Positions 1,504-9,759 of a stretch of 64,000 nucleotides of DNA are shown in pieces. Source of the stretch: a bacterium. GTDB taxonomy: Bacteria > UBA8248 > JACPRG01 > G963555815. The DNA is taken from assembly GCA_965261595.1 (NCBI GenBank), contig CBDHDG010000004.1:384001-448000 (forward strand), written 5' to 3'. The first letter of the stretch is position 1. Every line of letters starts with the position of its first letter. Below the pieces are notes generated by a model that saw only the letters and a program-made list of their open reading frames with translations, did not search any database and was not told the origin of the DNA. The translations under genes were made by a program, and so were the position numbers.

Positions 1504-1728
1504 TCACCCCTTGACCAGCACCAGCCTCCACTCGCCGCCCGAGACCTTCTCGGCCGTCACGGCGTGGCCGGCGCGCTTCGCCCAGCGGGAGATGTTGTCC
1601 ACGGCCAGGGGATAGTCCACGAGGGCGATCAGCCGGTCGCCGCCCGCAAGCCCCTCCATCGCCGACTGGACCTGGAAGAGGGGATCGGGGCAGACCTGTC
1701 CGCGCAGGTCCAGGGTTTGCTCTTTCAT
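1504..1728 (-). CDS. TusA/SirA/YeeD-family sulfur carrier
   Basis: 74 aa, LDLRGQVCPDP (CPxP motif); start overlaps the stop of the upstream YeeE gene. Confidence 0.9.
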   Translation of the reverse strand: MKEQTLDLRGQVCPDPLFQVQSAMEGLAGGDRLIALVDYPLAVDNISRWAKRAGHAVTAEKVSGGEWRLVLVKG

Positions 1729-2726
1729 CCGCTCCGAAGCCTCCTTTGAAAGAACCAATACGTTCCCGCCCAGACCCCCAGGATGGTGAAGACGGTCGAG
1801 ACGACGCTGCTCAGCGCCAGGGCCGAGACCCCCGTGAGGCCGTGGCTGATGTTGCACCCTCCGGCCGTCACGGCCCCGAACCCCATGAGCAGTCCGCCGC
1901 CGAATTGTCCGGCCATCCGCTGGGGGGGAGGCGCACGCCACGAGAGCTCCCCCGAAAGGCGCGCCGCGGCGAACGACCCGAACGGCATCGCCAGGACCAT
2001 GAAGACCGCCCAGTTGATCCCCGAGGCGTCCCCCGCCGTCGCGAACCTCGCCATGAGGGCCGTGGGACCGGTGATCGACAGGCCGTAATGCCGGCCGGTG
2101 AGACCGGACAGGAACCACGCCGGCGCCGCCAGCAGGCCGAGGAGGAGGCCGGTCTTCATCCAGCCCCAGCCGAAGAGCGGGACCTCGCGGGGGATCCGAA
2201 TGGCCCAGACAACTACCGCGACCGCGCCCACGCCCACGATGACCCACGGATGGACGCCCAGGAGGTTCGCCAGGGTGGGGACCTGGCCGCCAATCTCGAT
2301 CTCCGACCCCGTCCCCCCCCGGACCCAGAGCCGCACGGGCCGCAGGACCCCCCAGACCGTCGCCGCCGCCGCCAGGCCGAACCCCAGAAGCGCCACGAAC
2401 GAGCCCACCATCCCTTCCCCCACACGGCTCCACGTCCCGCTCGAACACCCGCCCGCCAGGGTCATCCCGATCCCGAAGACGAGCCCGCCCACGACCGCCG
2501 CCCGCCAGTAGAAAGGGACGCGCCACATCTCGAGCAGGCCCAGGGAGGCCCCGAGGTGAATGAGAACGGCCTGGACGGCTACGGCCAGCAGGTACGCCCG
2601 CAAGAGCGTCGCGTCCCCGGCGAACCGGACGGCCCGGAAGGCCGAGTTCATGCAGAACCGGCCGCGCTGGAGGATGATCCCGAAGAGAAACCCGACCGGC
2701 AGGCCGAGGGCGATTTGAAGGGCCAT
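1725..2726 (-). CDS. YeeE/YedE-family sulfur (thiosulfate) transporter
   Basis: QRGRFC, GMTLAGGCSSG and GGCNISH motifs; many hydrophobic segments. Confidence 0.9.
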   Translation of the reverse strand: MALQIALGLPVGFLFGIILQRGRFCMNSAFRAVRFAGDATLLRAYLLAVAVQAVLIHLGASLGLLEMWRVPFYWRAAVVGGLVFGIGMTLAGGCSSGTWSRVGEGMVGSFVALLGFGLAAAATVWGVLRPVRLWVRGGTGSEIEIGGQVPTLANLLGVHPWVIVGVGAVAVVVWAIRIPREVPLFGWGWMKTGLLLGLLAAPAWFLSGLTGRHYGLSITGPTALMARFATAGDASGINWAVFMVLAMPFGSFAAARLSGELSWRAPPPQRMAGQFGGGLLMGFGAVTAGGCNISHGLTGVSALALSSVVSTVFTILGVWAGTYWFFQRRLRSG

Positions 2727-2734
2727 GAAACGGA

Positions 2735-3373
2735 TTACTCGATGACCGGATGCCCGGCCTTGAACCACGCGCCGAAGCCTTCGGCGACGCTGGACGCCCG
2801 GGCGTATCCCCGGCCGGCAAAGAGCGCGGCGGCCGTCGCGCTCCGGAGGCCCTGCTCGCAGATGAAGACCAGATCCCGGTCTTTGGAGAATTCCCCGATC
2901 CGGCCCAAGAGGTCTCCCAGGGAGACGAGGCGCGCGCCTTCGATGACGCCGAGGCCCCACTCGAACGGCTCCCGGACGTCGACCAGCTCGAAGGCGGCCC
3001 GGTTCTCGCTCCAACTCTCGTGAAGCGCCTCGACGGAGATCAGGCCGAGGGGCTCGACCGGCTTCCCGGCGGCCGCCCAGGCGTCCATCCCGCCCGCAAG
3101 GCGGCCAAGGACGTCATACCCCCCGGCAGAGTCGAACCAGCCGCCCGCCTGCCGGACCCGGTCCTCCTCCCCGATGAGGACAACGCGGGAGGGAGCGGGC
3201 GCGACGGCGGGAACGTGCTTCGGGATGCTCCGCGCGCTGAAGGCGATGAAGATCGCCCCGGGAATTCTGGCCTCGCAATATGGGCCGAGGTCCCTGAAAT
3301 CCAGGAGGACGGCCCCCCGCTCGGCGGCCTCTGAAACCTCATCGGGGTCCAGAGGCCGGAGTCCTTCGCTCAT
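2735..3373 (-). CDS. Tandem-domain rhodanese-like sulfurtransferase
   Basis: LLDFR..Y...RIPGA, LAGGMDAW, LVDVREPFEW, active-site loop ICEQGLRS. Confidence 0.85.
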   Translation of the reverse strand: MSEGLRPLDPDEVSEAAERGAVLLDFRDLGPYCEARIPGAIFIAFSARSIPKHVPAVAPAPSRVVLIGEEDRVRQAGGWFDSAGGYDVLGRLAGGMDAWAAAGKPVEPLGLISVEALHESWSENRAAFELVDVREPFEWGLGVIEGARLVSLGDLLGRIGEFSKDRDLVFICEQGLRSATAAALFAGRGYARASSVAEGFGAWFKAGHPVIE

Positions 3374-3406: not shown

Positions 3407-3597
3407 CTTTTTTTATCCACAGATTACACAGATTACGCAGATTTTAAAGGCTGACCCAAGGAAAAAAATCTCTGTAGTCTATGGATCGATCAAGACGGAT
3501 TGCCATCGACGGATTGACACAAGAAAGGCATCCTTAAGGGTGTAATCATCTTCCCTTTTTCCTCTGTGCAATCTGTGTAATCTGTGGATAAAAAAAG
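3407..3597. repeat. 191-bp element bounded by a perfect 28-bp inverted repeat (MITE-like)
   Basis: ctttttttatccacagattacacagatt at 3407-3434 and its reverse complement at 3570-3597; AT-rich interior. Confidence 0.8.
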
Positions 3598-3612: not shown

Positions 3613-3888
3613 CTATGCGACATGGGCGATCGACGCCGGGGGGAACGCCCCCAGGGCGTAGATGGTGTAGGTCTCGATGGGGGCCAGGGGGTTTCCGTTC
3701 AGAAGTTTCATGAGCTCTTCATGTGATGCCACCTCGAAGATGGAGGCGTAACCCTTCAGCCCGACGATGGGGTGAATCTTCGCTTTTCCCCTTGCTTCCA
3801 GCAAGGAAAAATACTCCACTCACCCCTGGATGTCGGCGCCCTTGGGCATCAGTGCGGGCGGCTCGTTGATGACGAGAAACTTCGGCAT
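3613..3888 (-). CDS. Small DUF3303/muconolactone-isomerase-like protein with in-frame UGA at codon 23 (putative selenoprotein, or pseudogene)
   Basis: AAGGAG RBS, ATG at 3888; TGA at 3820-3822; frame continues 68 codons and aligns with paralog 3921-4226, which has Cys23. Confidence 0.65.
3784..3810 (-). promoter_or_regulatory. Candidate bacterial SECIS hairpin
   Basis: mRNA reads UGA gug gag uau uuuuCCUUGCU gga AGCAAGG ggaaaa; G-starting apical loop lies 20 nt after UGA. Confidence 0.5.
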
Positions 3889-3920
3889 GGCGGCGTTCTC
3901 CTTTGGATGATTCAAACAGA

Positions 3921-4226
3921 TCAGGGAAGGTTGAACTCGAAGCCGATGGCCTCCATGGCCTTCCGCTCCCCTTCCAGCGTTCCGAGCGCGTACACTTGGT
4001 ACGTTCCCCACCGGCCCAGTGGGTTTTTGAAAAGCTCGGCCATCAAATCGTCGTGGCTCTCTACGTCGATCAGGATGGCGAACCCGTATCCGTCATCCTC
4101 GACGAGGGTGTGGATCTCCGCGTTTCTCTTCTCTTTCAACCCTTCGAGGTGCTCGATACACCCCTGGATGTTGACGCCCTCGGGCAGGGGCTTGGCCGGG
4201 CGGGCGAGGACCAGGAATTTGTTCAT
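3921..4226 (-). CDS. Small DUF3303/muconolactone-isomerase-like protein (Cys paralog)
   Basis: MNKFLV...GFAILIDVESHDDLMAELFKNPL...YQVYAL pattern; paralog of the adjacent gene. Confidence 0.65.
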   Translation of the reverse strand: MNKFLVLARPAKPLPEGVNIQGCIEHLEGLKEKRNAEIHTLVEDDGYGFAILIDVESHDDLMAELFKNPLGRWGTYQVYALGTLEGERKAMEAIGFEFNLP

Positions 4227-4303: not shown

Positions 4304-5926
4304 TCAGAAGGTGTAAACACGCTCCCCCGTTTCCCCCGCCTCCGACCGCCGCCTCAGCTCGTTCCGCTTGATCTTACCAGATGTCGTTTTGGGGAGCGCC
4401 TCCAAAAACTCGATGACCTTCGGGGCCTTGTACGGAGCGATGCGCCTGCGGAGCAGGTCCCGGAGCGCGCGGGCCATCGCCGCGTCCGGATCCTGTCCGG
4501 GCTTCAGGACGACACAGGCCTTGACCCGCTGGCCCATCTCGGCATCCGCGACCCCGATGACGCCGGCCTCCAGAACGCCGGGGTGCTCCATACAGGTCTC
4601 CTCGACCTCTTTGGGGGAGATCAGGTAGCCGCGGCTCTTGATCAGGTCGTCGGTCCGGCTCACGTACCAGAAATAGCCCGCTTCGTCGAAGGAACCCAGG
4701 TCCCCCGTGTAATACCAGCCGCCGACGTGGTTCTCGGCCCACTTCTCCGGCATCTTCCGGTACTCGATGAAAAGCCCCGGACCGTCCTCCCGAATGGCGA
4801 CCCGCCCCACTTCGTCCGCCGGAACCGGGCGGCCGTCGTCGCCGTGAATCTCAACGACCCCTCCGGGAAAGACCTTCCCCGCCGAGCCCGGCTTGATGGG
4901 CTCGCCCGCGAGGCTGCCGCAAAACTTCTGCGACTCCGAGACGCCGATCCCATCCAGGATGTCGCAGCCGAACCGCTCCTTCCATTCCCGGTAGGTCTCC
5001 GGCGGCAGGGTCTCACCCGAGCTGTCGCAAAGCCGGAGAGCGCTCAGGTCATGCTCCTTCTCGGCCCCTTCGACGGCCAGCATCATCCGGTAGGCCGTGG
5101 GGACGGCGGCGAGGACGGTGATCCGGTTCTCTGCGACGACCCGGAAGGCCTCGGCGGGTCTGAAGCGCTCGGGGTGGATGAACACAGGCGTTCCGCAAAA
5201 GAGGGGATACAGGAGACCGTGCCCCCAGGCGTAGACGAAGCTGAATTCGGCCGGGTGCCAGCAGAGGTCGTCCGGGCGGAGCTTCAGGACCAGCTTCCCG
5301 ATGGGGTCGCCGGTGCCGATGAGCCAGCGGTGCGTATGGACAATCCCCTTGGGCAGGCCGGTTGTCCCCGAGGTGTACGCCATGAACGCCTCGTCCTCGG
5401 CGGAGGTCTGTATCGCGTCCACATCGAGGGGCTCGGCCGAGGCCAAGGAGGCGAACGGGAGCATCCCCGGTCCATCGCCGCCGAACAGGATGATGTGCTT
5501 CAGCGCCGGGCAGTCGGGCAGGACCTTCTCGACGCCCTCCATCCGGTCCGGGGTGGTCAGGACGGCCTTGGCGTCGGAATTGTCGATGACGTGCCGAAGC
5601 TCCCGCGGACCGAGCAGAGAGCTGCTCAGGACAGGGACGGCCCCGATCCGCAATCCCGCGAGGGCCGCGACGACATAATCCGGGTGGTTGTGGGAGCGGA
5701 GGATGAAGGTGTCCCCGCGCCCGATGCCGAGGTCGCGAAACGATCGGGCGCAACGCCGCATCCGGTCATCGAGCGCTCCGAACGAGATCTTCTCCGAACC
5801 GTAAACGAGGGCCGTCTCACCCCCCCTCCCCTCCGCCACCCACCGGCCGCAGACGGCGTGGGCCATGTTGAATCGGGTCGGAATCTTCAGATAGTCCGGC
5901 GGGAGGGGAACGTCCCAATTACCCAT
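4304..5926 (-). CDS. Acyl-/aryl-CoA ligase (AMP-binding, benzoate-CoA ligase-like)
   Basis: YTSGTTGLPKG, YYTGDLG, RTDDLIK, LPKTTSGKI motifs. Confidence 0.92.
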   Translation of the reverse strand: MGNWDVPLPPDYLKIPTRFNMAHAVCGRWVAEGRGGETALVYGSEKISFGALDDRMRRCARSFRDLGIGRGDTFILRSHNHPDYVVAALAGLRIGAVPVLSSSLLGPRELRHVIDNSDAKAVLTTPDRMEGVEKVLPDCPALKHIILFGGDGPGMLPFASLASAEPLDVDAIQTSAEDEAFMAYTSGTTGLPKGIVHTHRWLIGTGDPIGKLVLKLRPDDLCWHPAEFSFVYAWGHGLLYPLFCGTPVFIHPERFRPAEAFRVVAENRITVLAAVPTAYRMMLAVEGAEKEHDLSALRLCDSSGETLPPETYREWKERFGCDILDGIGVSESQKFCGSLAGEPIKPGSAGKVFPGGVVEIHGDDGRPVPADEVGRVAIREDGPGLFIEYRKMPEKWAENHVGGWYYTGDLGSFDEAGYFWYVSRTDDLIKSRGYLISPKEVEETCMEHPGVLEAGVIGVADAEMGQRVKACVVLKPGQDPDAAMARALRDLLRRRIAPYKAPKVIEFLEALPKTTSGKIKRNELRRRSEAGETGERVYTF

Positions 5927-5995: not shown

Positions 5996-6433
5996 TCACT
6001 TCGCCCGTTCCCAAATCAGGACGCTGGTGGTCTCTCCCCCTCCATAAACGAGCGATGGCGTGCTCAGCTTCAATCGGCCGTCCGAGAACTCGAAAAACCG
6101 GACCTGTTCTCCGCCGATCCAGTTGGGGAAGAGGCTGGTCTCGACGCGATGGAGGACGCAGGCGTCGTCTTCCCGAACCTCATAGGTTCCGGAATAAGCG
6201 ATGTAGCCTTCGAACGCGGCGCGAACCTCTTCGGATTCGCCTTTCAGCATATCGCCCGAAGCGAAAGCCGGACGGTCCCGGCGCATGATCTGCACGGACA
6301 TCCGGCCGTCGGCGTCATAGATCACCCGGCCCACGGCATCCTCGCCCAAGGGGGTGATGACTCGGCCGTCCGACAGGCGCGCCTCAAAGGAAACAAGGTC
6401 CCACACACCCACGAAAGATTGCTTGGCGCCCAT
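5996..6433 (-). CDS. Lipocalin-like domain protein
   Basis: FVGVWDLVS, GRVIYDADGRMS, YIAYSGTY, PNWIGGEQVR, LIWER pattern. Confidence 0.8.
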   Translation of the reverse strand: MGAKQSFVGVWDLVSFEARLSDGRVITPLGEDAVGRVIYDADGRMSVQIMRRDRPAFASGDMLKGESEEVRAAFEGYIAYSGTYEVREDDACVLHRVETSLFPNWIGGEQVRFFEFSDGRLKLSTPSLVYGGGETTSVLIWERAK

Positions 6434-6603
6434 TCCGGCTTCCCCCTCCTCCCCTCCCCCCCCCCTCTTTCAGAGCGCGCGACGCGGCGATTCATTCGGG
6501 ATCGCCCGACCGTCGACCTCAATCACCGCGTCGTCACACGCGTCCTCCAGCGAGGGATGTGGAATTGTAAAGAATGACAGCGGACCCTGTAAAGGATGCG
6601 GCG

Positions 6604-7560
6604 TCAGCCCCGATTTTCGGAAAGGCACCGGACGAGCGAGTCGGTCAGCCTCCGCATCAAAGCAAAATATTGCCCCGGCCCGGCTTGGAGGTCCGCGCCC
6701 AAAGGGTCGAGGACGGCCGCCCTCACGCCCGCGCCGGCCACAACCGTCCGGACAAGCGACAACCTGAATTGCGGCTCGGCGAACACGCAGACGACGCCCA
6801 GCCGCCGGACCCTGGCCCGGATCTCGAAAATTCGCCTCGCCCCGGGTCTTCGCTCGGGAGAAACCGTGAGCGAGCCCGCCACGTTCAATCCGTACCGATC
6901 CTCGAAATACCGGTAGGCGTCGTGGAACACAATATACGGGACGGCCGCCACCGGGCCGAGCCGAGACCGGATCTCTTCGTCCAGGGCGTGGAGCCGCCGA
7001 ATCATCGTCCGGCCGTTTTCCTGGTATCGGCGCCCGCGACGGGGATCGGCGCGGCCCAACACTTCCACAATCTCCCGGACCATGGCCCGCGCGTTCACCG
7101 GGTCGAGCCAAACATGGGGGTCGAATGGCCCCGCTCGGCGCTTCCCTCCCTCCCCCTTCTCTCCCCCCCCCCAGGCCCCGCCCTTCCGGACGGCCAGCCG
7201 GACCAGACGTCCGGTCTTCGCAAACTCGATGATGCGCGCCCTCGTGGACAGGACCTTCAGGGGTTTACGCAGAAAAGTCTCGAACGTCTCTCCCACCCAG
7301 ATCACCACATCCGCCCGCAGCAGCGCGCGCGCGTCGGAGGGGCGGAGGGAATAAGTGTGCGGCGAGGCCGCCCCCCGGACCAGGAGGCGCGGGACGCCGA
7401 CGCCCTCCATCACGCCCGCGGCCAGCGCGTGAAGCGGCCTGACGCTTACGACCACCCTGGGCGCGCCTTCACCGGCCCACGCGGGACTTCCCGGGAATTG
7501 GACCAACCCACACACAACCCCAATCAACGCGGCAACCCACTTCCCCGAGTCTATCGCCAT
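6604..7560 (-). CDS. znuA: Zinc ABC transporter substrate-binding protein
   Basis: ASPHTYSLRPSD, DPHVWLDP, FHDAYRYFE, CVFAEPQF; divergent from zur-znuCB. Confidence 0.92.
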   Translation of the reverse strand: MAIDSGKWVAALIGVVCGLVQFPGSPAWAGEGAPRVVVSVRPLHALAAGVMEGVGVPRLLVRGAASPHTYSLRPSDARALLRADVVIWVGETFETFLRKPLKVLSTRARIIEFAKTGRLVRLAVRKGGAWGGGEKGEGGKRRAGPFDPHVWLDPVNARAMVREIVEVLGRADPRRGRRYQENGRTMIRRLHALDEEIRSRLGPVAAVPYIVFHDAYRYFEDRYGLNVAGSLTVSPERRPGARRIFEIRARVRRLGVVCVFAEPQFRLSLVRTVVAGAGVRAAVLDPLGADLQAGPGQYFALMRRLTDSLVRCLSENRG

Positions 7561-7608
7561 CGCCGGACGGGTCTCCCTATCGGGATGAAATTCGACTTAT
7601 CTCCGATC

Positions 7609-7625
7609 ATGCAATATTATAACAT
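7609..7625. promoter_or_regulatory. Zur box
   Basis: atgcaatattataacat matches the ATGTTATAnTATAACAT palindrome, between znuA and zur. Confidence 0.75.
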
Positions 7626-7671
7626 TAAATAACCGGCTTGTTTTTCGCAAGTCTTATAAGGTCTGAACGCC

Positions 7672-8163
7672 ATGAACGACCCGCAAAAAGAAGACGCGTT
7701 CCTCTCCCGAAACCACGATCACAGGCTTTGCGTGAGCGGCGCCCTCCAGAGCGCCGAGGAGGTCTGCACCCGCCGGGGCGCCCGGCTGACGGCCCTGCGG
7801 CGGCGGGTCCTGGAGCTGGTGTGGGACAGCCACGCCCCCGTCGGGGCGTACGACATCCTGGAGCGGCTCTTTTCCCTGGGCCGCAGGGCCGCGCCGATCA
7901 CCGTCTATCGCGCCCTGGATTTCCTCATGGATCACGGACTGGTCCACCGCCTCGCCAGCCTGAACGCCTACGTCGGGTGCGGGTCCTCGGGCGCGCCGCA
8001 CAACGCCCAGTTCCTCATCTGCAAGGCGTGCGGGACGGCGGCCGAGCTGAACGACGCGCGGATCGACCGGGCCATCGCCCGGGGCGCCGCCCGGACGGGC
8101 TTCACGGTGGGCGGGTCGGTCGTGGAGATCCGGGGCCTGTGCCCGGACTGCGGCGGAAACTGA
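7672..8163 (+). CDS. zur: Fur-family zinc uptake regulator
   Basis: RLTALRRRVLEL, TVYRALDFL, two CxxC motifs; znu context. Confidence 0.92.
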   Translation: MNDPQKEDAFLSRNHDHRLCVSGALQSAEEVCTRRGARLTALRRRVLELVWDSHAPVGAYDILERLFSLGRRAAPITVYRALDFLMDHGLVHRLASLNAYVGCGSSGAPHNAQFLICKACGTAAELNDARIDRAIARGAARTGFTVGGSVVEIRGLCPDCGGN

Positions 8164-8170
8164 GGCCGGA

Positions 8171-8959
8171 ATGACCCCTGATCAAAATTCAGATCCTCTC
8201 ATCGAAGCCCGGGGGCTCGACCTCCATTTCGGACGCCAGTCCGTCCTGAGCCACGTGGACGTCTCGGTGAGCCCGGGCGAGATTGTGACGCTCATCGGGC
8301 CCAACGGGGCCGGGAAAACGACGCTCGTCCGCATCCTGCTCGGCCTCATCAAGCCGGACGCCGGCACCGTCCGGCGGCGTCCGGGCCTCGTCGTGGGCTA
8401 CCTGCCCCAGCGCTTCGCCATCGACCCGGTCGTCCCCCTGACGGTCAGGCGGCTCCTCGGGTTAACGCGCCGCGCGACCCCGGAGGCCATGGCCCGGGTC
8501 CTCGACGAAGTGGGCGCGGAGCGTCTGATCGACCAGTCGGCGCCCGACCTCTCGGGCGGCGAGCTGCGGCGCGTCCTCCTGGCGCGCGCGCTCCTGCGCG
8601 AGCCCGACCTGCTCGTCCTCGACGAGCCGGTCCAAGGAGTGGACGTAACGGGGCAGCTCGAGTTGTACGAGCTCATCTCCCGCATCCGGGCGCGCCGTGG
8701 ATGCGGGGCCTTCATGGTCTCCCACGACCTGCACGTCGTGATGGCCGCGACCGACCGGGTGATCTGCCTCAACCGTCACATCTGCTGCTCGGGACGGCCG
8801 GAAACCGTGAGCCGGCACCCGGAGTACGAGGCCCTGTTCGGCGCGGCGGCGCGCAACCTGGCCGTCTATATCCACGCGCACGACCATCACCACGACCTGG
8901 CCGGCGAGGTGGTCCATGAAGGGTCCGAGGCCGGGGCGTCCGGAGGCCCGGAAGAATGA
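8171..8959 (+). CDS. znuC: Zinc ABC transporter ATPase
   Basis: GPNGAGKT, LSGGE, LVLDEP, His-rich tail. Confidence 0.92.
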   Translation: MTPDQNSDPLIEARGLDLHFGRQSVLSHVDVSVSPGEIVTLIGPNGAGKTTLVRILLGLIKPDAGTVRRRPGLVVGYLPQRFAIDPVVPLTVRRLLGLTRRATPEAMARVLDEVGAERLIDQSAPDLSGGELRRVLLARALLREPDLLVLDEPVQGVDVTGQLELYELISRIRARRGCGAFMVSHDLHVVMAATDRVICLNRHICCSGRPETVSRHPEYEALFGAAARNLAVYIHAHDHHHDLAGEVVHEGSEAGASGGPEE

Positions 8960-9759
8960 CCGAGGATTTTTTCTTGCGCGGGCTGATCGGGGGGCTCGGC
9001 GTGGCCGTCGTGGCCGGTCCCTTGGGGTGCTTCGTCGTTTGGCGGCGGATGGCCTATTTCAGCGAATCGCTGGCGCACACCTCCCTCCTGGGCGTGGCCC
9101 TCGGCTTCCTCCTGGGCGTCAACCTGACCGCCGGGATCATTACAGCGTGCGTGGCGCTGGCCCTTCTCCTCGCAACCCTTCAGGGGCGGGGACGGCTCGC
9201 GACCGACACCCTCCTGGGCATCATGGCCCACGCGGCGCTTTCGGTGGGACTGGTGGTCATGAGTCTGATGGAGGGCCTGCGGGTCGATCTGCTCGGCTAC
9301 CTGTTCGGGGACATCCTCTCCATCACCCGGTCCGACCTGTATTGGGTGTACGGCGGGGGCGCCGGGGCGCTGGGGGCGCTGGCGTGGATATGGCGGCCGC
9401 TTCTCGCCCTCACCGTTCAGGAGGAGCTGGCCCGCGCGGAAGGGGTTCCCGTAGCGGCGGTGCGCCTGGGGTTCATGCTCATCATCGCCCTGGTCGTCGC
9501 GATCACGATGAAGATCATCGGCATCCTGCTGATCACGTCCCTTCTGATCATCCCGGCCGCGACGGCCCGGCGCTTCGCCCGGACGCCCGAGCAGATGGCC
9601 GTCCTCGCGAGCGGAATCGGCGCGCTGGCCGTGGTCGGGGGTCTCTTCGCCTCGCTGCGGTGGGACACGCCCACGGGCCCTTCCATCGTCGTCGCTGCGA
9701 CGATCCTGTTCGTTCTGGCCTTCGCCTCGGGCGGGTTCCCGTCACGGTCCGGGGTTTGA
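8956..9759 (+). CDS. znuB: Zinc ABC transporter permease
   Basis: GPLGCFVVWRRMAYF, YLFGDIL, LLIIPAATAR, DTPTGPSIV. Confidence 0.92.
   Translation: MTEDFFLRGLIGGLGVAVVAGPLGCFVVWRRMAYFSESLAHTSLLGVALGFLLGVNLTAGIITACVALALLLATLQGRGRLATDTLLGIMAHAALSVGLVVMSLMEGLRVDLLGYLFGDILSITRSDLYWVYGGGAGALGALAWIWRPLLALTVQEELARAEGVPVAAVRLGFMLIIALVVAITMKIIGILLITSLLIIPAATARRFARTPEQMAVLASGIGALAVVGGLFASLRWDTPTGPSIVVAATILFVLAFASGGFPSRSGV

Follow-up and report, generated by a model that had tools for sequence, protein, structure and literature searches.

A candidate selenoprotein of predicted muconolactone isomerase-type fold, paired with a diverged paralog, in a UBA8248 bacterium

We analyzed a 64,000-nucleotide stretch of DNA (here called the window; positions 384,001 to 448,000 of contig CBDHDG010000004.1 in assembly GCA_965261595.1) from a bacterium of the GTDB lineage UBA8248, and we focused on two adjacent paralogous genes, A and B, on its reverse strand. 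Gene A carries a single in-frame UGA at codon 23. Comparative rather than biochemical evidence makes it very probable that gene A is a genuine selenoprotein gene, in which this codon is decoded as selenocysteine (Sec) by means of an in-frame bacterial selenocysteine insertion sequence (bSECIS). A preliminary description of the window had put gene A forward as a candidate selenoprotein, and this reading is supported by the presence of the Sec machinery in the genome and by the retention of both the TGA and the hairpin in orthologs. The features on which the argument turns, in window coordinates, are the following.

3613..3888, reverse strand: gene A, putative selenoprotein coding sequence of 91 codons for a small protein of predicted muconolactone isomerase (MIase) fold; stop codon TAG at 3613-3615 (translation with TGA as U, orthologs with the same TGA, AlphaFold2 model, ClcF match)
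3820..3822, reverse strand: in-frame UGA, codon 23 of gene A, in our reading Sec (aligned to Cys or TGA in homologs, with purifying selection on both sides)
3785..3811, reverse strand: candidate bSECIS hairpin with a 12-bp stem (11 to 12 bp) and the apical loop GGA at 3797-3799; the loop lies 20 nucleotides (nt) after the UGA
3898..3904, reverse strand: Shine-Dalgarno-like AAAGGAG, 9 nt 5' of the gene A ATG (read from the sequence; GGAG is invariant in the four-genome alignment)
3921..4226, reverse strand: gene B, 101-amino-acid (aa) paralog and presumed partner subunit, MNKFLVLARPAKPLPEGVNIQGCIEHL... (translation, adjacency, fusions); it has Cys at position 23, which is not conserved in the B type

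Codon 23 is Cys or TGA in all aligned A-type sequences

The reading frame of gene A is open except for the single TGA. With this codon translated as U, the product has 91 residues and begins MPKFLVINEPPALMPKGADIQGUVEYF, with U as residue 23. In a BLASTP alignment, 36 of 84 residues (43%) are identical to gene B (E = 2e-22), and the first 45 residues are ungapped, which sets U23 opposite C23, in agreement with the gapless pairing at codon 23 of both genes that had been described from the sequence. The informative partner in the Sec/Cys pairing is the orthologous A-type protein and not the adjacent B: the column is Cys or Sec in 27 of 27 aligned A-type proteins, whereas just 3 of 21 B-type sequences have Cys at position 23. 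Elsewhere at the locus TGA acts as an ordinary stop, since it terminates gene B, and the 11 neighboring open reading frames that we scanned gave clean Pfam matches.

Orthologs were sought by a six-frame search of the window genome and 60 relatives. Gene A has orthologs in three of the relatives, one from the same genus (97% identity) and two from another genus (79 to 81%), and no match in the remaining 57. Each of the three orthologs contains a single TGA, which is codon 23, and adjoins a gene B. A metagenome scan yielded 29 loci, with TGA at codon 23 in 10 (58 to 97% identity) and Cys in the other 19 (42 to 56% identity). Altogether, TGA occupies codon 23 at 14 loci, down to 58% protein identity. 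The preliminary description had suggested looking for this codon and its hairpin in orthologs; both are kept, the hairpin in all TGA carriers. Besides the Cys/Sec column, positions P10, G46, Y47, A48, H56, L59, N66, and E72 are invariant in the 27-sequence alignment. A scan of genome contigs with two narrow N-terminal patterns found again only the three known genomes and is uninformative on the wider distribution.

Comparisons of close pairs of loci indicate purifying selection on both sides of the TGA, in codons 1 to 22 and 40 to 84. In codons 1 to 22, loci L036 and L039 differ by seven synonymous and no nonsynonymous changes, L035 and L036 by five and one, and L026 and L027 by six and three, respectively. 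Because the TGA is conserved and the codons preceding it evolve under purifying selection, neither a decaying pseudogene nor a separate 68-residue gene fits the data.

The hairpin after the UGA is kept in Sec forms

With RNAfold, the 66-nt stretch around the hairpin has a folding energy of -28.4 kcal/mol (z = -4.11), and none of 200 shuffled sequences was as stable. In the matching region (nt +10 to +42), the energy is -13.4 kcal/mol in gene A versus -2.3 kcal/mol in its Cys paralog B, in which the preliminary description had likewise seen no comparable hairpin. Of the hairpin as described there, the 7-bp core CCUUGCU/AGCAAGG, the GGA loop, and the 20-nt spacing stand, while the extension of the stem consists of two U.G and two to three U-A pairs and not of four U-A pairs.

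The hairpin separates the two forms of the family. All nine distinct Sec-form sequences have a centered hairpin (-12.1 to -16.1 kcal/mol) with a loop that begins with GGA at nt +21 after the UGA. Among the 16 distinct Cys forms, the mean is -5.0 kcal/mol, and the strongest fold (-11.3 kcal/mol) is located elsewhere. The mean for three B paralogs is -3.2 kcal/mol. The bSECIS model, as given in the legend to Fig. 2 of PMC13188914, has a loop of 3 to 9 nt, an upper stem of 4 to 16 bp, a G in the first two loop positions, a distance of 16 to 37 nt from the UGA, and a minimum free energy of at most -7.5 kcal/mol. The gene A hairpin, with a loop of 3 nt, a stem of 11 to 12 bp, a spacing of 20 nt, and an energy of -13.4 kcal/mol, lies within the limits of that legend, as do all nine of the distinct Sec-form hairpins.

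In the clade of the window, the stem reads UUUUCCUUGCU-GGA-AGCAAGGGGAA. A distant Sec clade has CCCUCUU-GGAC-AAGAGGG instead, with a 7-bp upper stem, a loop GGAC(A), and a short lower stem. The helix is therefore kept between the two Sec clades despite changes on both strands, with its register shifted by 1 nt. Within the window's own clade, the four-genome alignment has no substitution from nt +13 to +38, while 22 to 27 of the 45 downstream codons differ synonymously, which points to a constraint at the RNA level beyond that on the peptide. A covariance model (R1) gives 66 to 74 bits to 14 of 14 Sec loci and at most 19 bits to the Cys loci; as the sequences aligned without the gap that the register shift needs, it yields no pair counts. 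Rfam holds no matching family for the hairpin, with chance-level rows only (E = 1.7 to 7.7).

Two points weaken the case from the hairpin. RNAalifold on an ungapped 10-sequence alignment gave a weak consensus of eight pairs at -6.38 kcal/mol, one of them with a double change, and showed no column-wise covariation; there is no usable count because the hairpins of the two clades differ by 1 nt in register. In addition, the conserved peptide VEYFxLLxxRGKA could account for part of the conservation of the hairpin. What the alignments show is a conserved structure and not statistical covariation. An additional basal helix, in which GGGUGAGU would pair with AUUCACCC, was considered and dropped, as it is not kept in the relatives G004 and G006.

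The genome encodes the machinery for Sec insertion

The genome that contains the window has adjacent selA and selB genes (550 and 390 bits, both above the curated cutoffs), a tRNA-Sec gene (72 bits; called as tRNA-SeC with anticodon tca by ARAGORN), and a selD gene above cutoff, so that all four of the genes selA, selB, selC, and selD, for which the preliminary description had recommended a search, are present. The selD gene (G000:C5:89297-90265, locus L010) has one in-frame TGA, reads ...AGGUGSK..., and is itself a selenoprotein gene; its hairpin has a CGA loop 17 nt after the UGA. The organism can thus be shown to keep further UGA-Sec genes with a comparable geometry. Both selA and selB were found in all five family relatives searched, including G001, G004, and G006. 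Since G006 is a single contig that holds both the TGA ortholog and selA/selB, the contamination estimate of 5.6% for the window assembly is no longer a concern. On the comparative evidence, SelB and tRNA-Sec, recruited by the bSECIS hairpin within the coding sequence, very probably recode the UGA at codon 23 as Sec.

Alternatively, near-cognate decoding might insert a standard amino acid, Trp or Cys, at the UGA, and the hairpin would only slow termination. Downstream structures are known in general to stimulate stop codon read-through. We consider this very unlikely, as the genome has a complete Sec machinery, codon 23 aligns to an invariant Cys, and the hairpin has a geometry that fits the SelB-type model and is similar to the geometry of the organism's own selD hairpin.

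It is just as improbable that the UGA is a true stop and that the functional product is a 68-residue protein started from the GTG right after it, perhaps with a 22-residue leader peptide. There is indeed a GTG immediately after the TGA, and database calls take it as the start codon (P0003-P0005 and P0021). The Shine-Dalgarno-like sequence, however, precedes the ATG at 3888 and not the GTG, residues 1 to 22 are conserved as protein, and the Cys homologs run continuously across codon 23. Moreover, the predicted fold needs strand 1 (residues 3 to 9) and the start of helix 1, both of which are missing from the 68-residue form.

A pseudogene, in which a nonsense mutation in a Cys paralog was joined by a hairpin that arose by chance, would require one substitution only (TGT or TGC to TGA) and would agree with public gene callers, which take the TGA as a stop and give fragments of 54 to 68 aa, but it is extremely improbable given the same TGA at 14 loci whose identity range of 58 to 97% excludes one recent clone, the purifying selection on either side, the hairpin that is present in nine of nine distinct Sec sequences and absent from Cys forms, and the suppression of synonymous changes across the hairpin.

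Sec forms are truncated in public annotation and were not found in the selenoprotein catalogs searched

A search for homologous proteins returned five matches, all of them fragments that start after the TGA. The public calls of Sec members (P0003-P0007 and P0021) likewise have their start at the GTG next to the TGA or beyond it and comprise 54 to 68 aa, and a fusion protein, P0018, lacks the first 23 residues. The Sec forms of the gene A family are thus systematically misannotated as short MIase-like proteins. These truncated calls make the family invisible in annotation, a fault that could be mended by a profile that has U/C at position 23.

The family appears to be absent from current catalogs. 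An inventory from 2026 that describes itself as the most comprehensive lists 119 families and subfamilies of prokaryotic selenoproteins, and its Table 1 (119 entries) includes no MIase (PF02426) or DUF3303 (PF11746) family (PMC13188914). No selenoprotein model in NCBIfam release 20 matches gene A at an E value of ≤1; NCBIfam models also exist for the majority of the table entries called "hypothetical," and none of these matched at this threshold. The statement of the preliminary description that no selenoprotein was known in a DUF3303-like family thus agrees with both sources. The main texts of PMC13188914, PMC12013277, PMC13326102, PMC2398784, and PMC9312934, as far as they were covered, hold nothing relevant on a muconolactone, isomerase, or DUF3303 selenoprotein. 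Our search, which covered main texts in the open literature, found nothing that joins selenoprotein or selenocysteine with muconolactone (isomerase), and nothing on DUF3303.

Gene A is apparently the first recognized Sec member of a two-paralog, MIase/DUF3303-like system, and it is undescribed in the sense that we did not find it in the sources searched. This is less of a surprise given that new bacterial selenoprotein families continue to turn up regularly. With the established selenoproteins that have a bSECIS in the coding region, such as FdhA and the organism's own SelD, gene A shares the in-frame UGA, the Cys homologs, a hairpin 16 to 37 nt downstream whose small loop starts with G, and the dependence upon selA, selB, selC, and selD. 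It differs from them in that its fold and family lie outside the 119 of Table 1 in PMC13188914. With gene A, the bacterial selenoproteome would gain a well-supported family whose fold, of the MIase or dimeric alpha+beta barrel type, is not listed among selenoproteins in the 2026 inventory. The fold, the likely exchange of an active-site Glu for Sec, and the rhodanese fusions described below make this more than a routine addition.

Predicted fold and position of Sec23

The AlphaFold2 model of the gene A product, built on a 27-sequence alignment, has a pLDDT of 89.5 and a pTM of 0.77. Its elements follow the order beta-alpha-beta-beta-alpha-beta, with a strand at residues 3 to 9, a helix at 20 to 32, strands at 36 to 40 and 47 to 52, a helix at 56 to 64, and a strand at 73 to 79. 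The best structural match of the model is the 5-chloromuconolactone dehalogenase ClcF (Foldseek E = 4.5e-6; TM score, 0.76 to 0.79), and muconolactone isomerase (1mli) is also among the best matches. With VIA-align, ClcF reaches a Z score of 13.0 over 85 residues (root mean square deviation, 3.4; 22 to 25% identity), compared with 9.3 for the next unrelated fold. The model thus predicts that the product of gene A has the MIase/ClcF fold.

ClcF and muconolactone delta-isomerase (PF02426; 3znj, 3zo7, 4fpi, and 1mli) share with gene A the ferredoxin-like fold of about 90 residues, the motif SH[DE]EL before helix 2, and the company of genes for aromatic or acyl-coenzyme A (CoA) catabolism. Gene A differs from them by having Sec or Cys at what we take to be the position of Glu27. 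Furthermore, ClcF and MIase consist of one subunit type, whereas A and B are two diverged paralogs, the first with Cys/Sec and the second mostly without, in an apparently obligatory pair, and A and B, unlike ClcF and MIase, are linked or fused to rhodanese.

In sequence searches, the relationship is faint. Against the Pfam MIase family (PF02426), some B-type and Cys-form relatives reach 26.7 to 29.7 bits and gene B scores 13.8 bits; in NCBIfam, gene A has only a weak row for TIGR03221 (23.2 versus 130.6 bits). The label "DUF3303-like" given in the preliminary description is no more than a lead. In Pfam, neither A nor B matches DUF3303 (PF11746) at an E value of ≤1, but the lead was a reasonable one, since the Cys homolog P0014 lies beside DUF3303/MIase clusters of several phyla in the ESM Atlas (score, 0.90).

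In the model, the first turn of helix 1 contains Sec23. A profile alignment pairs position 30 of gene A with residue 34 of ClcF, inside helix 1, and extending this register would place Sec23 at the position of ClcF Glu27. One PDB entry bears the title "ClcF E27A with substrate." Glu27 is reportedly the catalytic base of ClcF (Roth and colleagues, 2013). It is reasonably likely that Sec23 is an active-site residue of an MIase-fold enzyme, because it is invariant, sits at the N terminus of a helix, and is the likely equivalent of a catalytic Glu. Two points count against the strength of this assignment. The score of gene A itself for PF02426 (26.2 bits) falls just below the cutoff of 26.7 bits. 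The profile alignment starts at residue 30 and so stops short of residue 23, and the match to Glu27 comes from extending its register.

Gene B as the probable partner of gene A

A profile search against 1.84 billion representative proteins gave 52 relatives at an E value of ≤0.001, and the 25 of these that were inspected are of two types, A and B. The A-type proteins have the motif G-C-[VIL]-x-[YH]-[FW]. In the B type the residue at this position varies: the 21-sequence alignment has Ala most often (14 sequences), followed by Cys (3), Ser (2), Val (1), and Arg (1). The gene B of G006 (locus L027, 1164-1466) has Ala at position 23 and a Cys at 47 instead, and the Cys23 of the window's gene B is thus not a conserved feature.

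Gene B ends 32 bases upstream of gene A, and B adjoins A in four of four genomes and at most metagenome loci. Three natural fusions (P0011, P0016, and P0017) are single chains in the order A-linker-B. Adjacency and fusion together suggest that A probably acts with B as a heteromer. An alignment of the fusions with single-domain relatives placed all of the latter on the B domain.

Metatranscriptome contigs from two libraries labeled as seawater (X15 and X16) cover 3836-4000 and 3855-4088, are identical to the window, and bridge the stop of B and the start of A. They are compatible with cotranscription of the two genes, and carryover of DNA could also explain them. No metatranscriptome contig spans the UGA or the rest of gene A, which proves nothing either way.

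Rhodanese and other neighbors of the A-B pair

The genes that flank A and B in the window are as follows.

2735..3373, reverse strand: rhodanese-domain protein of 212 aa, downstream of A, active-site loop CEQGLRS (Pfam PF00581, E = 2.3e-20)
1725..2780, reverse strand: YeeE/TsuA-like thiosulfate transporter, start approximate (Pfam Sulf_transp, E = 2.5e-76; NCBIfam TsuA, 242 bits, below the cutoff of 400)
1504..1740, reverse strand: TusA-like sulfur carrier (Pfam TusA, E = 3.4e-20)
4304..5926, reverse strand: AMP-forming acid-CoA ligase of the benzoate-CoA ligase family, upstream of B (Pfam AMP-binding; TIGR02262, 368.5 versus 375.25 bits, just under the cutoff)

Right after gene A, the genes for the rhodanese, the TsuA/YeeE-like transporter, and TusA are tightly clustered on one strand (1504-3373, reverse strand), and all three carry Cys and no Sec. 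An acid-CoA ligase gene also lies upstream in G004 and G006.

Rhodanese genes stand beside A or B in the window, in G004 and G006, and at loci L036/L037, L041, and L046. They adjoin every Sec-form locus that has sufficient flanking DNA, with the exception of L035, a Sec locus of 1.5 kb that contains B, A, LigA, and LigB and no rhodanese within that length. Three independent cluster representatives (P0012, P0018, and P0019) are A-B-rhodanese fusions, in which the rhodanese loops read CRTGNRS or CERGNRS, so that the catalytic loops are intact. Because P0018 begins exactly one residue past the Cys/Sec column, it is probably a miscalled Sec form. At most Cys-form loci, two or three RidA genes are arranged with B, A, and a gene for a PaaY/gamma-carbonic-anhydrase-like protein, in this order, and a smaller group has aldehyde:ferredoxin oxidoreductase, A, an unknown gene, and thiolase.

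Sec-containing forms of YeeE and rhodanese exist elsewhere (PMC13188914, Table 1). Like the sulfur-trafficking selenoproteins of that table (rhodanese-like forms 1 to 5, DsrE-like, HesB-like, and YeeE/YedE), gene A has a single Sec and sulfur-transfer partners. Here, in contrast, the Sec resides in a separate MIase-fold subunit, and the rhodanese, YeeE, and TusA of the window carry Cys.

Possible functions of the A-B pair

Given the A-B-rhodanese fusions and the gene neighborhood, we tentatively propose, as a possibility that falls short of an even chance, that sulfane sulfur is exchanged between the A-B complex and a rhodanese persulfide and that the complex has as its substrate an acid in CoA thioester-activated form. 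The selenolate of Sec23 would be the catalytic nucleophile and would trade a sulfane sulfur atom with the rhodanese persulfide; the sulfur would then be given to, or taken from, an organic acid carried as a CoA thioester by the neighboring ligase-type pathway. The link to rhodanese is not universal, which speaks against this proposal: many Cys-form loci have no rhodanese in the flanks available.

A more specific version, which we regard as unlikely, is that Sec has replaced the catalytic Glu of the MIase fold and that a heteromeric A/B barrel works through a selenopersulfide (Se-S) intermediate, with sulfur supplied by a dedicated and sometimes fused rhodanese and inserted into, or stripped from, the CoA-activated acid. 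If true, this would be new chemistry for the MIase fold and a new catalytic role for Sec beyond thioredoxin-type and metal-ligand sites.

Gene A could also be a real selenoprotein while A and B form a plain isomerase or eliminase of CoA-dependent (aromatic) acid catabolism. Sec or Cys would then replace the catalytic Glu as base or nucleophile, and the rhodanese would protect or repair the active-site chalcogen or be unrelated. The nearest structures are indeed those of lactone isomerase and dehalogenase enzymes, and the neighbors include a benzoate-CoA ligase family gene and a PaaY-like protein, along with LigA/LigB, VOC/methylmalonyl-CoA-epimerase-like, RidA, enoyl-CoA hydratase, thiolase, and aldehyde:ferredoxin oxidoreductase genes. 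What makes such an enzyme somewhat doubtful, if still a serious contender, is the sulfur side of the locus: the three independent A-B-rhodanese fusion representatives with an intact catalytic loop, the rhodanese beside every sufficiently flanked Sec-form locus except L035, and the TsuA-like thiosulfate transporter and TusA that follow the rhodanese in the window.

Under the sulfur-exchange proposal and the isomerase/eliminase alternative alike, the invariant Cys/Sec, the mostly Cys-less paralog, and the rhodanese fusions provide a testable handle on an uncharacterized DUF3303/MIase-like pair that is widespread in metagenomes. The natural Sec and Cys versions also allow one to ask what selenium buys in an active site that is not of the thioredoxin type.

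Other features of the locus

One further element lies between gene A and the rhodanese gene.

3407..3597, no strand assigned: dispersed inverted-repeat element, not part of the selenoprotein gene; arms of 44 nt at 3407-3450 and 3554-3597, 86% complementary, with 103 nt between them

A 21-mer from its core has 23 copies in the genome (7 forward and 16 reverse) and none in the reversed control, and the element looks like a dispersed repeat of the repetitive extragenic palindrome (REP) or miniature inverted-repeat transposable element (MITE) kind. Gene A and the rhodanese gene are separated by about 90 nt in G004 and by more than 200 nt in the window. An open reading frame at 806-1306 on the forward strand has an IS200-like Y1 transposase domain (PF01797, E = 3.5e-9) and may be of the type that mobilizes REP-like repeats such as this one.

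On the other side, the locus is bordered by an ordinary zinc/manganese uptake cluster (5996-9759), which consists of genes for a lipocalin-like protein and a ZnuA-type metal-binding protein (5996-7560, reverse strand) and of Fur-family, ABC ATPase, and ABC-3 permease genes (7672-9759, forward strand).

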